Assembly (NCBI GenBank): GCA_902489795.1
Contig: CABUBU010000001.1
Span: forward strand, 41,956 to 105,955
DNA length: 64,000 nt
Direction of reading: 5' to 3'
Origin: an uncultured Azospirillum sp.
GTDB taxonomy: Bacteria; Pseudomonadota; Alphaproteobacteria; RF32; CAG-239
Positions 24,337 through 43,580 of this stretch are shown here, in pieces (positions within the stretch are counted from its first letter, which is position 1; every line of letters starts with the position of its first letter). The notes beneath the pieces were generated by a model that worked only from the letters and a program-made list of their open reading frames with translations, searched no databases and had not been told where the DNA came from. The translations under genes were made by a program, and so were the position numbers.

Positions 24337-24549
24337 TCGTTCCCCGGCCAAATTTTTTACTTGCAAAATAAGCAAAGTATGTGTAAAAAGACAGCGAATA
24401 TCAACCATTTGATATTCGCTTGTTTTAACAATTCACACGCAGGCGCGGCGGAAGCTTCTTGCTGTTTTCAAAGAAGAGTTCGCTCCGGTGCCCGGGCAGA
24501 CCGGGCCGAAAGTCTGCGGAGGTTTAACCGGAAAAAAGGATATATATAA

Positions 24550-26411: not shown

Positions 26412-26443
26412 TTCTTCTTTTCAAGAAGCAAAAACAACCCAAA

Positions 26444-26469
26444 ACGCTCCGGAAACGGGGCGTTTTTTG
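26444..26469 (+). terminator. intrinsic terminator after tsf
   Basis: Hairpin acgctcc-ggaaac-ggggcgt followed by T6. Confidence 0.6.
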
Positions 26470-28080
26470 TGCCCCGCCTCTGCATCGATCTCGAAGTTCT
26501 TAAAAATTTATAACAATTCCCCAACAACCCTCTCTGTTAGAATGTAATTCCTGACAATTATAAAAGCTTATGAACAAAGGGGATATAAAATAAACACACA
26601 CAAGTTAGTCCCTGAAAATAGAATGTTGTTCTCACCCCAAAATATCGCAGGAAGGCACTCTCGGAACTTATCACCAAAAATAGATTCAATATAAAGCAGA
26701 CAATTTTGGTATAAAGAATGCGACATTGATATAACAGGAAAGCCCACCGGAAGATAACCGAACATATACGGAAGCGGTTAAAAGAATCCGTAGAGTAAAG
26801 CCGGCTCACAACGAATTTTGGCCAGTTTGCCGGTAGCAAGTAATCTTGCCGGACGGAATTAAATTTATCATCCAAGCAAGACTGTTAAAATGAGACTTAT
26901 TTGTCATATGAAAACAATCGTACATATTTGTGGCACCTCAGACATTCCTTTTTCACTCCGGAAACATAACGATTGCTTAAAAGAAAAAGCGCTTTTCTTG
27001 CCGTCTGTCCTCCTCCTGCCTTTAGGCTTAATTGCATTTTTTGGATTTAATTATTCGATTCAGCCGATACGCATCTACCTTTTTGAATACCGTTTTTAAT
27101 TTGATTTTTTCAAATCATGGTTTTCCGCCTTTTATTTTTTTCTGCATCTCGGCCAGTCTGTAGCAAACTTTTCCTCCGGGGAAATCAGCAGAAGCGTACA
27201 AGGCTTTATAAATAAACATGCCTCTAAGATTTCAGAACGTTTGCCGACACCGACAAACTAATAATACAGGCCGTCTTCCGCCGCCCCTCGCATCGCCGCA
27301 CGTTGTTTTCTCGCCTTTCCGATCCTGTTCACCGCTCCCTTGCCTGACGTTTTCGTATCATCATTTTAAAAGTTCGCCTTCTCCCTCTCCTCGCAGTTCT
27401 ATTTTGAATTCATCTTAACGTTCCGAAGAAAAACAAAGGAGAAGAGAAAAAGGCGTACAAAATCAATCGGGAACAGCATAAACACAATAAAAACTTAATA
27501 CGGCAAAAACCGGTCTTCTCCTGCCGGCGGAAAAACGCCGCTCCCAAACCCCGGCACAACAAAGGGGAAACGACGAAACAAAAAGTATTTTAACCCCCAA
27601 TAGACTGTGGTCCTATAGAAAAGGCACCTTTTGGTTCCTTTTCCTTACCGCTGCAAAAGGAGCTGACCTAAATCTATCGTCCCTGCAATGCTGTATAATG
27701 TTTAATTTTTTCTTCATCTAAACCAACGCTGCTGATGGAGTATCCCCGCAACCAAAATACATTTTCTTCAAAATATACTTTGCTGAAGCCAAGTAAACTT
27801 GGCTCTTATTTGTAGAATATTGGCTTTTCAATGGTGCCATAACATCTGCTATTACATATCTTGGCGCTATTGTCATAACAAAATAAGCATGGAGCCGATC
27901 TTCTCTGTCTTACATTCGTTCTTGACAGCTTTAGCAGCCCTCTCCCCATCGGGAATGCTTCCCGTCAGCTTTAGCAGTCCAAGCAATAATTTCCTGATAT
28001 AATCCACGATACCAGTAACGATACTTATACGCCTACAAGACACGATAACTCAAACGGTAAACTTTGGTTGACCTCGTGCG
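26470..28080. other. 1.6 kb AT-rich non-coding stretch (possible decayed remnant)
   Basis: No ORF above about 100 codons in any frame, only short low-complexity ORFs, and much lower GC than the flanks. Confidence 0.5.
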
Positions 28081-28150
28081 ACTGCTATAATTCTTTATAG
28101 CACTGTCGTCCTGAGCATTAAACCACCATTAAAATGGATGGATAGCATCA
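28081..28150. repeat. truncated third copy (C) of the structured repeat family seen at 35405 and 49832
   Basis: cattaaaccaccattaaaatggatggatagcatcaaaaca aligns with the 3' part of copies A and B (..ttcaacc.c.attaaaatggggg..gcatcaa.aca). Confidence 0.4.
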
Positions 28151-28182
28151 AAACAATATGAAAAAAGAGAAAAAAGTATTTT

Positions 28183-28781: not shown

Positions 28782-29219
28782 TCAGGCCATACCGCCGCTG
28801 CCGCCGCGCCGGGCAATTTCCTCATAAACCAGCCTTTTCAAAACCTGAAAAGGATCGTGTTTATGCAAGGATTTGGTCATTTCTTCCAACTCGTCTACCA
28901 ATCGCACCAGATATTGTAGAGAAAATTCTTTCAAAACTTCCACAATATCGGCCTCATGACCAACGATCAGTTCACTTGCATCTACAATAAGAATACCGCG
29001 TTTTTTCAGCTCGCACTCTATCTTTTCCAAATAATGGACAAAACCGTTAACCATTGTTCTTTCAAACGGAAGCAGTCGCTCCTGCTTGTCATAAACAGAA
29101 ACAATAACTTTTGTGTAAATCGCCAGCGTTATCAACTCACCGTCATAACACTTTACAAAGTCTTTTGTTGTCAATTCCTGCAAAAATTTAGGAACAGCCA
29201 GTCTTTCTTCTTTTTCCAT
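28782..29219 (-). CDS. hypothetical acidic protein (P1), tandem paralog
   Basis: 145-aa ORF in the AT-rich island with no recognisable family, followed immediately by its paralog. Confidence 0.5.
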   Translation of the reverse strand: MEKEERLAVPKFLQELTTKDFVKCYDGELITLAIYTKVIVSVYDKQERLLPFERTMVNGFVHYLEKIECELKKRGILIVDASELIVGHEADIVEVLKEFSLQYLVRLVDELEEMTKSLHKHDPFQVLKRLVYEEIARRGGSGGMA

Positions 29220-30816: not shown

Positions 30817-30960
30817 AAAATGCGCTATAACAGGTAATAGCGGATTATATCGGATAATAAAACATCTTAACATGTATAATCGTATACATTTATGACAAAA
30901 AGACGACAGCAATAAAATTTCGCGCCCTCCCGGGGTCGAGTCCCAAAATCATATTGCCAT

Positions 30961-30990
30961 AAAAAAAACCGTCGCAGGGACGGTTTTTTT
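30961..30990. terminator. bidirectional terminator downstream of tRNA-Arg
   Basis: A8, hairpin ccgtc-gcagg-gacgg, then T8. Confidence 0.55.
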
Positions 30991-30992
30991 TA

Positions 30993-31069
30993 TGGCGTCA
31001 GCGGCGGGACTCGAACCCACTGCCCCAGGTTTAGGAAACCTGTGCTCTATCCTGATGAGCTACGCTGAC
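30993..31069 (-). tRNA. tRNA-Arg (anticodon CCU)
   Basis: Manual cloverleaf: acceptor GTCAGCG/CGCTGAC, D-arm GCTC..GAGC with GG, anticodon stem CAGGT/ACCTG with loop TTCCTAA, T-arm GTGGG-TTCGAGT-CCCGC, discriminator G, encoded CCA. Confidence 0.85.
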
Positions 31070-31112
31070 CTCAAACAAGGACGGATTATAACCGCACTTT
31101 TTGCAAAATCAA

Positions 31113-31514
31113 TCATTCTTCGTCATCTATCCACGATTTCAAACTGGCCACCTCCGCTTTAAAGTCGGATTTCACCCCCGACCAAAACTCGCGGAAATCA
31201 GTCTTTTTCCAAGTGGTAACCAGCCAGTAGGCGCCGACCGACACAATTACCAGCACTCCGATCGTAAATCCGCAGGCCAGCAACCAGACGATTGTCATCC
31301 CCACCGAAAGCGCCAGAATCAACCCGCGGGAATAGTCGACGCCCTTGACATAATGGATGGAGTATATGAACATGGCCAGCAAAAGCGCAATGCCGAGCAT
31401 CGACCCCCAGCGTGCCACCGGGCCGTATCCGTCGATTTTGAGGTTGAGCACCCATACGCAGCCGGCCGTCAGCAAGCCGCAGATAATCAACCCCGCCGTT
31501 AGCATTGTACTCAT
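31113..31514 (-). CDS. small polytopic membrane protein with holin-like topology
   Basis: 133 aa, 4 TM helices and a charged C-terminal tail, adjacent and divergent to the lysozyme gene and beside the tRNA. Confidence 0.4.
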   Translation of the reverse strand: MSTMLTAGLIICGLLTAGCVWVLNLKIDGYGPVARWGSMLGIALLLAMFIYSIHYVKGVDYSRGLILALSVGMTIVWLLACGFTIGVLVIVSVGAYWLVTTWKKTDFREFWSGVKSDFKAEVASLKSWIDDEE

Positions 31515-31679
31515 TTTATCCGAAGTCTTGGTTGTTGGTTAACGATCAGCATTAACGTGTTATGTTAGCGTATTTTCACCGTTATGTCCAGTTCTTTGTT
31601 GCCGGCCGAAAAGCCCGAAAAACAACTTTATTTTTCCCTTGCCCCGGTTATAATGACAAACATCGGAAAGGAGAATAAA

Positions 31680-31970
31680 ATGGGCAAATTGCAGACGTTT
31701 CTGGCTTCGGCCATAATCGGGCTTTCGCCGGCGGGCGGCGGCAATCTCAACGCACAGACGACCGAACCGCAGTGGCCGAAAACGGAAAAAACAGAAAAAA
31801 CCGATGTTTTCGCCAGGTTTCGCATGGCAGAAAAGCACGCGCTGCCATTGCTTGTTTTTTCGAAGGCTGTTCGCTCAAAGCTTATAACGACTGCAACGAC
31901 ATTGCCACCATCGGCATCGGCAACACTACGTTTCCCGACGGACGCCGGGTTACCCTCAAAGACCGGCTGA
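31680..31970 (+). CDS. short ORF encoding a signal-peptide or SAR-like (Gly/Ala-rich weak TM) N-terminus, one frame off the lysozyme
   Basis: Strong RBS aaggagaataaaATG. MGKLQTFLASAIIGLSPAGGGN.. The frame continues 97 codons over the lysozyme's 5' part. Confidence 0.35.
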   Translation: MGKLQTFLASAIIGLSPAGGGNLNAQTTEPQWPKTEKTEKTDVFARFRMAEKHALPLLVFSKAVRSKLITTATTLPPSASATLRFPTDAGLPSKTG

Positions 31971-32572
31971 AAGACAACCGCGAAATGTATGAGATGGTTC
32001 GCGCCTACCTGGAAAAATACGCCTACCCGCTGATTGACAGATATGTCACCCGCCGGCTGGAGACGGAAGAAATGGCGGCTCTCATCAGCCTCACGTACAA
32101 CTGCGGCGCCAAAATTCTGCAAAACCGGGGACGCCCTTCGCAAATCGCTCGGTTGATCAACGCCGGCGGCTCGGTCGAAAATCTGTCCCGCGCTTTTTTG
32201 CGCAAGGCTTACTCCCGCAAAGGCTTTAACAACGGGCTGGCGGTGCGCCGCTGCATGGAAGTCCTCTACGCCAAAAGACTTCTGACCTATGAGGATTTTC
32301 AAAACTTTTACGTCTGCAGTTACGACAAGCTGAATTACCAGGGCTTGACCTTGTACGGCAAAAGCGGCCGCGTTGTCAAAACCGACGGCGAGGCTCTCGC
32401 TCGCGTCCGCCGCGTCTGCGGCACCACTCCTGACCGGGAAACCTGCCAAAAGAGGGAATGGTTCGGCGGCGACCGCCGGGTCAGCCTGTTCACGCCGGCA
32501 GAAAACCCAAAACGGCCGCCGGCTCTGAAACTGAACCCGATTCTGTTCGCCTACCGCGTCAACCGACGTTAA
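31772..32572 (+). CDS. phage-type lysozyme (GH24, T4/lambda-R-like) with a roughly 100-aa C-terminal extension
   Basis: Catalytic E-x8-D-x5-T triad in FFEGCSLKAYNDCNDIATIGIGNT. Only a GTG start without an SD is available in this frame, which is open back to 31679. Confidence 0.65.
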   Translation: MAENGKNRKNRCFRQVSHGRKARAAIACFFEGCSLKAYNDCNDIATIGIGNTTFPDGRRVTLKDRLKDNREMYEMVRAYLEKYAYPLIDRYVTRRLETEEMAALISLTYNCGAKILQNRGRPSQIARLINAGGSVENLSRAFLRKAYSRKGFNNGLAVRRCMEVLYAKRLLTYEDFQNFYVCSYDKLNYQGLTLYGKSGRVVKTDGEALARVRRVCGTTPDRETCQKREWFGGDRRVSLFTPAENPKRPPALKLNPILFAYRVNRR

Positions 32573-33681
32573 AAACCGTTTTCCGCCAGCCGCTGCAAAA
32601 ACCTCCTTTGAATCTCGGCCAGCTGTTCGACCGACTGCCAGACGACGTATTCGCCGGCCGCATGCATGCCGTCGCCGCTGCCCGAATGCATGATCACCAC
32701 CGAGCCGCGTTCGGCAAATGCGCGGGAATCCGTCGCGCCGCCGATATATTCAAACTCAAGCGGCTGTCCCAGATATTCTTCCGCCAACTGCTTGTAAGCG
32801 CGGATATGAGGATTGTTTTCATCCATCACCACCGCTCTGCCGGCAGAGATGATCCGCCAGTCGACGCCTTCAACCGCCGCTTTTTGCAGATTTTCCTCCA
32901 GCCCGGTAAGGGTCGACTTTTCCGTCAGGCGGAAATCGAGCAGCGCCTCGGCATGGTTGGCTATGACATTGGCCACCGCGCCGCCTTCGATTTTGGCAAA
33001 ATGAACCGTGTCAACCCAGGTGTCGGCCGGTTTCGGCATTTTTTTGCTGTAATAGGGATAAAATTTGCGGATATTTTGCCAGGTCTGCATCAGCTGTTCG
33101 TTGGCGTCGATTCCTTCCCACGGGGTGGATCCGTGCGCCTCTTTGCCTTCCGACGTCAGCTTGACGAAAACCGGGCTTTTGCAGCGGGCGACGATTTTGT
33201 TGATGCTGCCGGCAACGTCGACGTCAAACACGATTTTGGCCTGAAGATCGGGATTGTCCTTTAAGAACGCTTCCAGCCCGAAACTGCCTTTCTCTTCGTC
33301 GGAAGAAAGCAGCACACCGAACTTAAGCGGCAGCTTTTCTTTGATGACATATTCGAGCGAAGCAAGCCCGACCGCGGCAAAAGACTTCATGTCAAGGGTG
33401 CCGCGGCCAAACATTTTGCCGTCTTTCTCATAGGGAATAAACATATTGTCGGCGGCCGGCACCACGTCGATATGCCCGACCGCGAGAACGTCGAAATCGC
33501 GCTTTTCGCCGTTTGTCAGCAGCATTACCGGCGCCAGCGCGTCCTTTTTGTAAATTTCAACCGCCGCACCCATTTCGTCCGCCAGCTTGGAAAGATAGCA
33601 CATGCACCGGTCGATCTCCGGCAGATTGCCCGTTTCCGTGCGGAATTTAATCAGTTCCGCCGCCGTTTTCCGTAAATCCAT
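32569..33681 (-). CDS. M20-family metallopeptidase / deacylase (DapE/ArgE-like)
   Basis: HIDVVP.., GRGTLDMK and ..SDEEKGS metal-binding motifs. The start at MDLRK lies 19 codons inside the track ORF. Confidence 0.75.
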   Translation of the reverse strand: MDLRKTAAELIKFRTETGNLPEIDRCMCYLSKLADEMGAAVEIYKKDALAPVMLLTNGEKRDFDVLAVGHIDVVPAADNMFIPYEKDGKMFGRGTLDMKSFAAVGLASLEYVIKEKLPLKFGVLLSSDEEKGSFGLEAFLKDNPDLQAKIVFDVDVAGSINKIVARCKSPVFVKLTSEGKEAHGSTPWEGIDANEQLMQTWQNIRKFYPYYSKKMPKPADTWVDTVHFAKIEGGAVANVIANHAEALLDFRLTEKSTLTGLEENLQKAAVEGVDWRIISAGRAVVMDENNPHIRAYKQLAEEYLGQPLEFEYIGGATDSRAFAERGSVVIMHSGSGDGMHAAGEYVVWQSVEQLAEIQRRFLQRLAENGF

Positions 33682-33780
33682 TTTTTTCTCCTTCGGTTGC
33701 CTGAATTTTACCTTTTGTTTATCATATATGGGTATCATTACGCCAATTATGATAAAAAAGCATTAATGAGGACAAAAGAG

Positions 33781-34284
33781 ATGAAAACATTTTTAAGCGC
33801 CGTACTGGCCGTTTGTCTGTTTGCCCTTCCCGTTTCCGCGCAAAACGGAGACGACGGCGATTCAGGCCGCAGTCTGCCGCGGATGGCCTCACTGCGTTCC
33901 AAACTGGTCAACGCCCGTTCCGGTCCCGGCTCCCGTTACCCGATCGAATGGGTATACAAACAAAAGAACGCACCGGTCGAAATCATTGCCGAATTTGACC
34001 TGTGGCGCCAGATACGCGACTGGGAAGGCTCGGAAACCTGGGTCTACAAGCCGATGTTAAGCAGCCAGCGCTGGATCAAAATGACCAACAAAGGCACCAG
34101 CAGCATCTACGCCAAGCCGGAACACGACGCCAAAGTGATTGCCAAAGTCGAAGACCAGGTGATCGGCAAGGTGGAAAAATGTCCGGAAGACAAGGATTTT
34201 TGCCTGATCAAATTCGCCTCGATCGAAGGCTGGGTTCAAAGGGAGGACTTTTTCGGAGTTTATCCCGGAGAAACGATTAACTGA
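33781..34284 (+). CDS. secreted tandem SH3-like (DUF1058) domain protein
   Basis: Signal peptide followed by VNARSGPGSRYPIEWVY..W.QIRDWEG..WV, repeated twice. RBS gagga. Confidence 0.7.
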   Translation: MKTFLSAVLAVCLFALPVSAQNGDDGDSGRSLPRMASLRSKLVNARSGPGSRYPIEWVYKQKNAPVEIIAEFDLWRQIRDWEGSETWVYKPMLSSQRWIKMTNKGTSSIYAKPEHDAKVIAKVEDQVIGKVEKCPEDKDFCLIKFASIEGWVQREDFFGVYPGETIN

Positions 34285-34301
34285 AACCGCAGGATTAACC
34301 G

Positions 34302-42876: not shown

Positions 42877-43437
42877 TTACTTGCTGACGATGACCATCGC
42901 CTCCCGCAATATCCTGTCATTAATCATATATCCGGTCTGCAGTTCGGCCACGACGGTACCGGCGGGTTTGGACTTGTCTTCCACTTCCTGCACCACCTGA
43001 TGGAAAGCGGGATCGAAAACTTTGCCCATCGGCTCCATTTTGGTGACGCCGAACTTGGCCAGCACTTTGCTCAATTCCGATTCGGTCAGTTCCACGCCTT
43101 TTTTCAGCTGTTCGCATTCAATGCTGGTCAACTCCTCGGCGGCGGCAAGCGCCCGGTGCAGATTGTCTGCTACGGAAAGAATTTCCTTGGCAAAGGAGCT
43201 GACGGCATATTTGGAGTTTTTCTCCATTTCCGCGGCGCAGCGCTTTTTGGTGTTTTCCAGTTCCGCATACGCGCGCAGATAATCGTCTTTCAGCTTGGCA
43301 TTCTCCGCTTTCAAAACTTCCGCCTCACGGTCGATTTTTTCCGCGGCTGCCTCGATTTCCTCCGTCAGATTTTCATTGTTTTCCGATGCCTGTTCGCATT
43401 CGTTTTCGGAGTTATGCTCTTTTTTATCCTTTTTCAT
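42877..43437 (-). CDS. grpE: nucleotide exchange factor GrpE
   Basis: Coiled-coil N-terminus and the GrpE signature ..ELQTGYMINDRILREAMVIV. Confidence 0.88.
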   Translation of the reverse strand: MKKDKKEHNSENECEQASENNENLTEEIEAAAEKIDREAEVLKAENAKLKDDYLRAYAELENTKKRCAAEMEKNSKYAVSSFAKEILSVADNLHRALAAAEELTSIECEQLKKGVELTESELSKVLAKFGVTKMEPMGKVFDPAFHQVVQEVEDKSKPAGTVVAELQTGYMINDRILREAMVIVSK

Positions 43438-43580
43438 TTTTCCCTCTTTAATTTTTTTTCAAAGCGCGTATATTTCTTATATACAACATTTAATGATTAA
43501 AGATAAACAAGTCAAGGGGAGAAGTTTTTATTGCCTTTTTAATTGATTATTAAAACAGACAATATATATTCTTTTTACGA

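Follow-up and report, generated by a model that had tools for sequence, protein, structure and literature searches.

A one-base frame break in a predicted exported GH24 lysozyme gene near tRNA-Arg in a gut alphaproteobacterial lineage

The lysozyme gene and its two reading frames

We analysed a GH24 lysozyme gene in a 64,000-nucleotide stretch of contig CABUBU010000001.1 (assembly GCA_902489795.1), which belongs to an uncultured Azospirillum sp. This whole stretch is called the window here, and positions are counted from its first letter. The lysozyme coding sequence occupies 31680-32572 on the plus strand, where an N-terminal part and a catalytic part can be found one nucleotide out of frame with each other. 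It lies between an M20 peptidase gene and the gene for a 133-amino-acid membrane protein (TM133), which is transcribed divergently from it and beyond which lies a tRNA-Arg gene. The parts of the lysozyme gene are as follows.

31515-31679: divergent intergenic region with promoter-like sites and the AGGAGA Shine-Dalgarno (SD) sequence of the lysozyme gene, nearly identical in intact loci of the sister lineage
31680-31859, plus strand: 5' segment of the putative lysozyme pseudogene in the ancestral frame, with a leader MGKLQTFLASAIIGLSPAGGGNLNAQ, a disordered linker and helix alpha-1 DVFARFRMAEKHALPLLVF
31772-31774, plus strand: GTG without an SD, picked by gene callers as the start of a 266-amino-acid open reading frame (ORF; protein P0004)
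31786-31800, plus strand: two A6 runs (31786-91 and 31795-800), coding in frame for KTEKTEKT; not the shift site
31855-31860, plus strand: T6 homopolymer, from which one nucleotide is deleted; the run is T7+C or T8 in orthologues that are in frame (Val-Phe-Phe codons)
31859-32572, plus strand: 3' segment of the putative pseudogene in the -1 frame, with the GH24 catalytic domain and a Cys-containing, family-specific C-terminal domain of ~100 amino acids
31968-31970, plus strand: premature stop for translation begun at ATG 31680, giving a 96-amino-acid product with 37 residues out of frame

The lysozyme matches PF00959 with 61.1 bits against a gathering cutoff of 22.3 (E 1.7e-16) and the phrog_7 endolysin family with an E-value of 7.8e-22. 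Its catalytic motif, E62-X8-D71-X5-T77 in the numbering of the repaired protein, is contained within FEGCSLKAYNDCNDIAT (codons 31862-64, 31889-91 and 31907-09), and the GH24 motif has been given as E-X8-D-X5-T (PMC9239132). The open lysozyme frame extends from 31679 to 32572 and runs one base behind the ORF that begins with the AGGAGA SD and the ATG at 31680 and ends at the stop at 31968-70, so that the offset is -1. An earlier account of this DNA, made from its letters alone and called the sequence-only reading here, had described most of these parts correctly: a GH24 lysozyme with an E..D..T triad, a frame open from 31679 with an SD-less GTG at 31772, a strong ribosome binding site (RBS) with an ATG at 31680 one nucleotide out of the lysozyme frame, and A6 runs at 31786-31791 and 31795-31800.

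Site of the frame break and distribution of the T6 allele

For the homology searches, we joined the two frames at the T run, with ...AEKHALPLLVF taken from frame 0 and FEGCSLKAY from the -1 frame, because together these make a typical lysozyme N-terminus. Eight relatives (P0001-3, 5-7, 10 and 11; 33-92% identity) have no frame break between the N-terminus and the catalytic domain. The intact orthologues run through a Sec-type leader, a linker and the helix in that order, in a single frame MGKL...AEKHALPLLVFFEGC, and the stretch F-A-x-F-R-x-AEKHALPLLVFFEGC is present in all eight in-frame relatives except the most distant, P0011. When the DNA is aligned to the in-frame orthologues, the sole gap is one T in the run at 31855-31860: the window reads G-T6-C at 31854-31861, while the orthologues read GTT TTT TTC (T7) or GTT TTT TTT (T8). 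This comparison upholds the proposal of the sequence-only reading that a -1 offset cuts the lysozyme off from an exported N-terminus, which is present upstream and in frame in the eight relatives.

The two A6 runs had been proposed as the place where the frames join, which the orthologue alignment does not confirm, since it puts the missing base at 31855-31860. The orthologues keep the upstream frame across both A6 runs and for ~18 codons beyond them, and the shift site in the T6 run lies ~55-70 nt 3' of these runs. We rejected a fusion at the A6 runs, which would swap the conserved helix DVFARFRxAEKHALPLLVF for out-of-frame residues. A shift site is better found by comparison with orthologues than by looking for the nearest homopolymer.

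One T has been lost from the Val-Phe-Phe run (GTT TTT TTC to GTTTTTTC), one codon before the catalytic Glu, presumably through replication slippage. Ribosomes starting from the SD and ATG at 31680 would then stop after 96 residues, and the catalytic and C-terminal domains would be stranded without start signals, leader and first helix.

The T6 allele is genuine and is found in many independent assemblies. The exact 266-amino-acid product (P0004) is indexed in 52 assembly-collection blocks, and a product that differs by four residues (P0026) in 41. The loci of this lineage that we fetched were taken from different studies, and 12 out of 12 (L001-8, L021-23 and L032) have T6, with identical flanks to the run throughout; a direct comparison of the eight P0004 loci with the window shows no difference over the 281 bases around the run. 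A sequencing or assembly error was considered as the source of T6 and rejected, because TM133 and the genes for the M20 peptidase, the SH3 protein and the T2SSE-type ATPase are intact on the same contigs. Three contigs (L031, L039 and L040), in which M20 is frameshifted too, look error-prone and were discounted. An exact look-up of 12 repaired in-frame sequences, representing seven alleles of the lineage with alternative starts, found none of them in a collection of 15 billion proteins, and one metagenome scan for in-frame alleles of the T6 lineage returned only intact loci of the sister lineage. The nearest in-frame proteins are only ~92% identical to the product of the T6 lineage.

The intact enzyme and the loss of its reading frame

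The repaired protein of 297 amino acids is predicted to comprise a Sec-type leader, a disordered linker of ~20-35 amino acids, a T4-lysozyme-like catalytic domain and a family-specific C-terminal domain. Its AlphaFold2 model has a predicted local distance difference test score (pLDDT) of 72, with the catalytic and C-terminal cores at 85-95, and a confident helix at residues 45-62 spans the frame break at residues 60/61. Solved endolysins in the PDB align from residue ~51 of the repaired protein, and the best Foldseek matches (8APP, 9KBS, 6ET6 and 7M5I; probability 1.0, 27-30% identity) have a T4-lysozyme-like fold. These four are GH24/PF00959 phage lysozymes, three from Acinetobacter phages or prophages (8APP, 6ET6 and 9KBS) and one from an E. 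coli phage (7M5I), with the same Pfam family, triad and fold. The lysozyme described here differs from such endolysins in its conserved chromosomal housekeeping context, in its leader, long disordered linker and Cys-conserved C-terminal domain of ~100 amino acids, and in being frameshifted in the window. Searches for remote homologues of the C-terminal domain found none outside the small lysozyme family. Phage-type lysozyme domains encoded in alphaproteobacterial chromosomes can likewise be seen in the SpmX muramidase domain (6H9D) and in BgtA, the Bartonella gene transfer agent endolysin (NF058676). The Foldseek match to 6H9D is weak (E 0.02), and our protein lacks an SpmX-like transmembrane C-terminus; BgtA is the best NCBIfam match, at 40 bits against a cutoff of 315. 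The lysozyme belongs to neither family, and it differs from both in architecture and context.

The leader contains one Lys and then a charge-free stretch LQTFLASAIIGLSPAGGGNLNAQTT (K3 to T28) rich in Gly, Ala and Ser, in agreement with the Gly/Ala-rich N-terminus that had been noted in the ATG-31680 frame. Its hydrophobic core of ~11-12 residues is followed by Ser-Pro and Gly, and a possible cleavage motif ending xA|Q occurs in close relatives. Between this core and the catalytic Glu lie 44-58 residues, which are of low confidence or disordered in the model. Over 19 residues, the Kyte-Doolittle hydropathy of the leader is 0.98, and that of the signal-arrest-release (SAR) domains of P1 Lyz and R21 is ~2.1. 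A SAR domain would be expected as a weakly hydrophobic, uncharged segment of ~20 residues that comes after 1-3 basic ones. SAR endolysins such as P1 Lyz, R21 of phage 21 and Mu gp22 share with this protein the GH24 type and a single basic residue ahead of a charge-free Gly/Ala/Ser-rich stretch, and the lysozyme has weak fold matches to R21 and P1 Lyz and to the structures 3HDE and 1XJT. It is unlike them in that its core of ~11-12 residues is not packed against the domain in the model, and in that it has no pinholin or phage context. Given the short core and the long disordered linker, we favour a cleavable Sec leader over a SAR domain, as predicted from sequence and model, and the intact enzyme would then be periplasmic; several Cys residues are nearly invariant among the orthologues, which fits a periplasmic protein. 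SAR domains evade hydropathy methods, and they are identified definitively when a pinholin or depolarisation frees them from the membrane (PMC9239132).

The 266-amino-acid ORF that begins at the GTG is an annotation artefact that gene callers make of the frameshift, because it is without the leader and has out-of-frame residues in place of helix 1. The "lysozyme" with this start in public annotations of the lineage is best treated as a pseudogene fragment, the true protein of the family being 297 amino acids long and, by prediction, exported. The sequence-only reading had left three options for the gene. A cytoplasmic lysozyme started at the GTG is unlikely, since the native helix leading into the catalytic Glu (model residues 45-62) would be missing from it; slippage or recoding finds little support; inactivation by the frameshift is the option that we favour. 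A 91-amino-acid protein (P0063), on contigs of up to 62 kb, is a C-terminal fragment of the lysozyme called as its own gene in NCBI and ENA assemblies, and is probably another disrupted lysozyme allele.

With the frame broken, the catalytic domain is cut off from the start, the leader and helix 1. Therefore, we consider that a core-genome gene for an exported GH24 muramidase has become a young homopolymer-frameshift pseudogene that is fixed in the lineage of the window, a reading to which we give a probability of about 0.78 and under which the function would have been lost. Between species, the ratio of nonsynonymous to synonymous substitution rates (dN/dS) ranges over 0.11-0.26 in the catalytic and C-terminal part of the gene, and over 0.15-0.31 in its N-terminal part; this purifying selection indicates that the intact protein, its leader region included, is functional. 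Parsimony counts with L015 and L009 as outgroups, to be compared with a neutral site ratio of ~3.2 nonsynonymous to 1 synonymous, give 11 synonymous and three nonsynonymous substitutions on the stem to the T6 lineage, and one synonymous and four nonsynonymous substitutions within it (Fisher p = 0.038). Three conserved positions have derived replacements in the window allele, one of which, G74D, falls between the catalytic Asp and Thr, and the 12 full-length (266-amino-acid) variants of the lineage together show 11 different replacement sites in the former catalytic and C-terminal regions. A second 1-nt deletion, in the first A6 run, is found in L032. Small as these numbers are, they point to a recent inactivation, with constraint relaxed thereafter.

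Several observations weigh against this reading of a young pseudogene. The signal of relaxed selection consists of only five substitutions, and the replacement excess relative to neighbouring genes has p = 0.004 with M20 and p = 0.17 without it. None of the 12 full-length variants has a stop within the 237 codons of the downstream ORF, and the promoter and RBS are unchanged. The open ORF and the unchanged signals fit a very young pseudogene, and they fit low-level expression by slippage equally well.

One alternative is recoding, in which the T6 lineage would still make a full-length enzyme because tRNA-Phe slips by -1 on UUU_UUU in the ribosome, or because RNA polymerase slips and adds a U. 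Any -1 slip within the run would bring back the ancestral VFFEG exactly, from a gene whose ORF, SD and promoter are intact. However, the zero frame reads GUU UUU UCG and contains no X XXY YYZ heptamer, and no stimulatory structure was found in the 80 nt downstream, which fold no better than shuffled sequences (z +0.43). All orthologues are in frame, so that the shift is not conserved, and nonsynonymous changes outnumber synonymous ones after it. Six U residues are also below the tract length that is usually needed for efficient transcriptional slippage. We regard recoding as very unlikely.

The T run is slippage-prone, a hot spot at which indels recur. At least two haplotypes of the sister lineage (L024/L026 and L028) have had T8 shortened to T7; L025, which belongs to the same sub-lineage as L024, has lost 31 nt of the leader, and single-base indels occur elsewhere in the gene in L027 (+1) and L030. 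The neighbouring genes are intact on the contigs that carry these lesions. The gene could potentially be a phase-variable contingency locus, in which slipped-strand changes of the poly-T run switch the lysozyme ON and OFF and the window shows the OFF state. This is suggested by the independent shortening of the same run in the sister lineage, where ON (T8) and OFF (T7) alleles coexist, and by the presence of T8 in three in-frame lineages. Simple-sequence repeats are described as indel hot spots that are able to drive phase variation (PMC3315296). Against such a switch, only the OFF state is found in the window lineage, among more than 90 indexed blocks and 12 full-length variants, and the 12 repaired ON sequences are absent. 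The run itself is not conserved, being T7+C in L015 and GTC+T6 in L016, L017 and L019, and the sister-lineage lesions outside repeats (the 31-nt deletion in L025 and the +1 in L027) suggest that loss is tolerated or favoured. A T6 run is, moreover, short for efficient reversion. Phase variation therefore appears unlikely as an explanation of the window allele. The locus has in common with homopolymer-indel pseudogenes and contingency loci that a one-base contraction of a coding run kills the frame, and that the run has been hit again in the sister lineage; it differs from contingency loci in that OFF is apparently fixed in the window lineage, in its unconserved run of 6-8 nt and in its additional non-repeat lesions.

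Our preferred reading, a young pseudogene, concerns the window lineage. In the two sister lineages, lesions specific to the lysozyme comprise T7 to T6, T8 to T7 at least twice, the 31-nt deletion and several single-base indels, with intact neighbours. It is conceivable, though doubtful, that selection in the human gut has repeatedly favoured loss of the periplasmic muramidase, or that populations there switch it reversibly, with the poly-T run as the preferred mutational switch. The repeated, lysozyme-specific disruption in gut populations hints that the hydrolase could be dispensable or costly in the host. A contraction of this kind is an ordinary event in a poorly known family; the population pattern of repeated loss is mildly interesting, and the wider impact is modest.

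Neighbouring genes and the tRNA side

The remaining features of the locus are on the minus strand.

31113-31514, minus strand: TM133, a lineage-specific 133-amino-acid membrane protein with ~4 transmembrane segments and an invariant acidic C-terminus LKSWIDDEE, directly upstream of tRNA-Arg
31112-31085, minus strand: sigma-70-like promoter of tRNA-Arg, TTGATT-16-TATAAT
30993-31069, minus strand: tRNA-Arg, anticodon CCU (CCT in DNA), called by ARAGORN and Rfam; the sole tRNA of the window
30956-30996, minus strand: intrinsic terminator just past the 3' end of tRNA-Arg, a perfect 18-bp hairpin between A8 and T8, with arms that are 100% complementary

The tRNA-Arg(CCU) of the sequence-only reading is confirmed by the ARAGORN and Rfam calls, and so is the 133-amino-acid protein with four transmembrane segments and a charged tail, 5' of the tRNA and divergent from the lysozyme. 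The label "holin-like" for this protein finds no support past its size and hydrophobicity: it matches no holin family, and it does not share the fate of the lysozyme. Its tail KKTDFREFWSGVKSDFKAEVASLKSWIDDEE is charged and net acidic; holins are likewise small, with 1-4 transmembrane domains and a charged, hydrophilic C-terminus, but this combination is generic and not diagnostic. TM133 has no match in Pfam, PHROG or NCBIfam at E <= 0.01, the only weaker match being phrog_28862, a family without an assigned function (E 0.027), and word-indexed and exhaustive profile searches of 1.84 billion representatives returned only its own family of seven clusters at 50% identity. The members of this family are all ~130 amino acids long and end in W-[IVM]-[DE]-[GD]-E-E. 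TM133 is 62-95% conserved, with a between-species dN/dS of 0.05-0.18, and none of the complete loci examined has a disrupted copy of it, even where the lysozyme is broken; it is absent beside the most distant lysozyme homologue, P0011. TM133 and tRNA-Arg are simply conserved neighbours of the lysozyme, not lysis partners.

The spacer 3' of tRNA-Arg (window 30918-31014, aligned with L003, L021 and L023) contains a unit of ~198 nt whose copy number differs among strains with an identity of 99.5% or more. It includes a T-arm-like fragment (TTCGCGCCCTCxCGGGxTCGAGTCCC), the A8-hairpin-T8 terminator and the final 18-22 nt of tRNA-Arg, and is present once in the window and in 2-3 or more copies in other strains. 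In sequence it resembles an att-type partial tRNA duplication. Many public contigs end near 30982 because this unit varies in copy number. Tandem Repeats Finder reported no repeat in the tRNA-side spacer; the partial duplication was revealed by alignment, in other strains. A RhuM gene is found on the 3' side of tRNA-Arg in one related lineage.

The nearest genomes are metagenome-assembled genomes from the gut, labelled "Azospirillum sp. 51_20", "uncultured Azospirillum sp." or "uncultured Alphaproteobacteria bacterium", and a literature search for "Azospirillum sp. 51_20" returned incidental mentions only. The gene order is conserved in every locus, down to 65% protein identity, and runs from DnaJ, a 76-amino-acid ORF, tRNA-Arg, TM133, the lysozyme and the M20 peptidase to the SH3 protein, the T2SSE-type ATPase, redoxin, VWA, PP2C and a kinase, with rpsB and tsf upstream of the locus. 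An rpsB leader (RF01815, 51 bits) at 24434-24545, upstream of rpsB-tsf, confirms the housekeeping neighbourhood. No phage structural, integrase or lysis/spanin genes were found among the neighbours of the lysozyme locus.

This conserved housekeeping synteny, with no phage genes nearby, contradicts the suggestion of the sequence-only reading that the locus is the remnant of a prophage lysis cassette at a tRNA. Such a degraded cassette, with a holin and a SAR endolysin integrated at tRNA-Arg, would account for a GH24 fold that is nearest to phage endolysins, for the small protein with four transmembrane segments that adjoins the lysozyme and for the charge-free N-terminal stretch rich in Gly, Ala and Ser; the variable partial duplication of the tRNA and the RhuM gene of a related lineage, both at the 3' side of the tRNA, could be cited in its favour as well. 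Elements that target tRNA genes, however, sit 3' of them, whereas here TM133 and the lysozyme are 5' of the tRNA, opposite to the partial duplication. In addition, the gene order is constant across all relatives, integrase, structural and spanin genes are lacking, and TM133 is divergent, matches no holin model and forms a family of only seven clusters at 50% identity. The only "phage" record matched, at 91% identity, is MT836238.1 ("UNVERIFIED: Bacteriophage sp."; L042, 1-11670), an unverified contig from a human faecal virome that is collinear with window 31029-43526 at ~95% identity. We rejected this record as a phage genome, its collinearity with the chromosome marking it as bacterial DNA. 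A prophage origin of the cassette is accordingly extremely improbable, and a lysis cassette should not be assumed wherever a phage-type lysozyme adjoins a tRNA and a small membrane protein.

Further observations concern the flanking genes. The M20 peptidase gene (32569-33681) shows 11-13 synonymous and 0-1 nonsynonymous differences between otherwise near-identical strains, and the T2SSE ATPase of L022 (8531-9505) has 35 synonymous differences from the window; both look like recombination tracts. An element of ~65 nt that contains an inverted repeat (TTTTTCCCGC...GCGGGAAAAA, then TATCCGTAAAATCTGTAT) is present twice in direct orientation, at 42445-42510 and 42795-42860, in an AT-rich stretch that coincides with the far end of recurrent public contigs of 11.5 kb. 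Between tsf and the next gene, 26412-28157 is a 1.75-kb gap with a GC content of 0.43, in which no ORF of >=110 amino acids and no Rfam family was found and which is empty of called genes in L001-L003 too. A gene for a hypothetical protein of 145 amino acids (28782-29219, minus strand) has a DNA identity of only 72% to the sister lineage (L018) and a synonymous divergence (dS) of ~1.1, and its neighbours are 94-98% identical to L018; the gene is either hypervariable or replaced. At 36423-39326, genes for a VWA protein, a PP2C phosphatase and a Ser/Thr kinase stand in tandem, an arrangement reminiscent of the TerY-phosphorylation triad, and the VWA protein matches phrog_28389 (E 8e-48).

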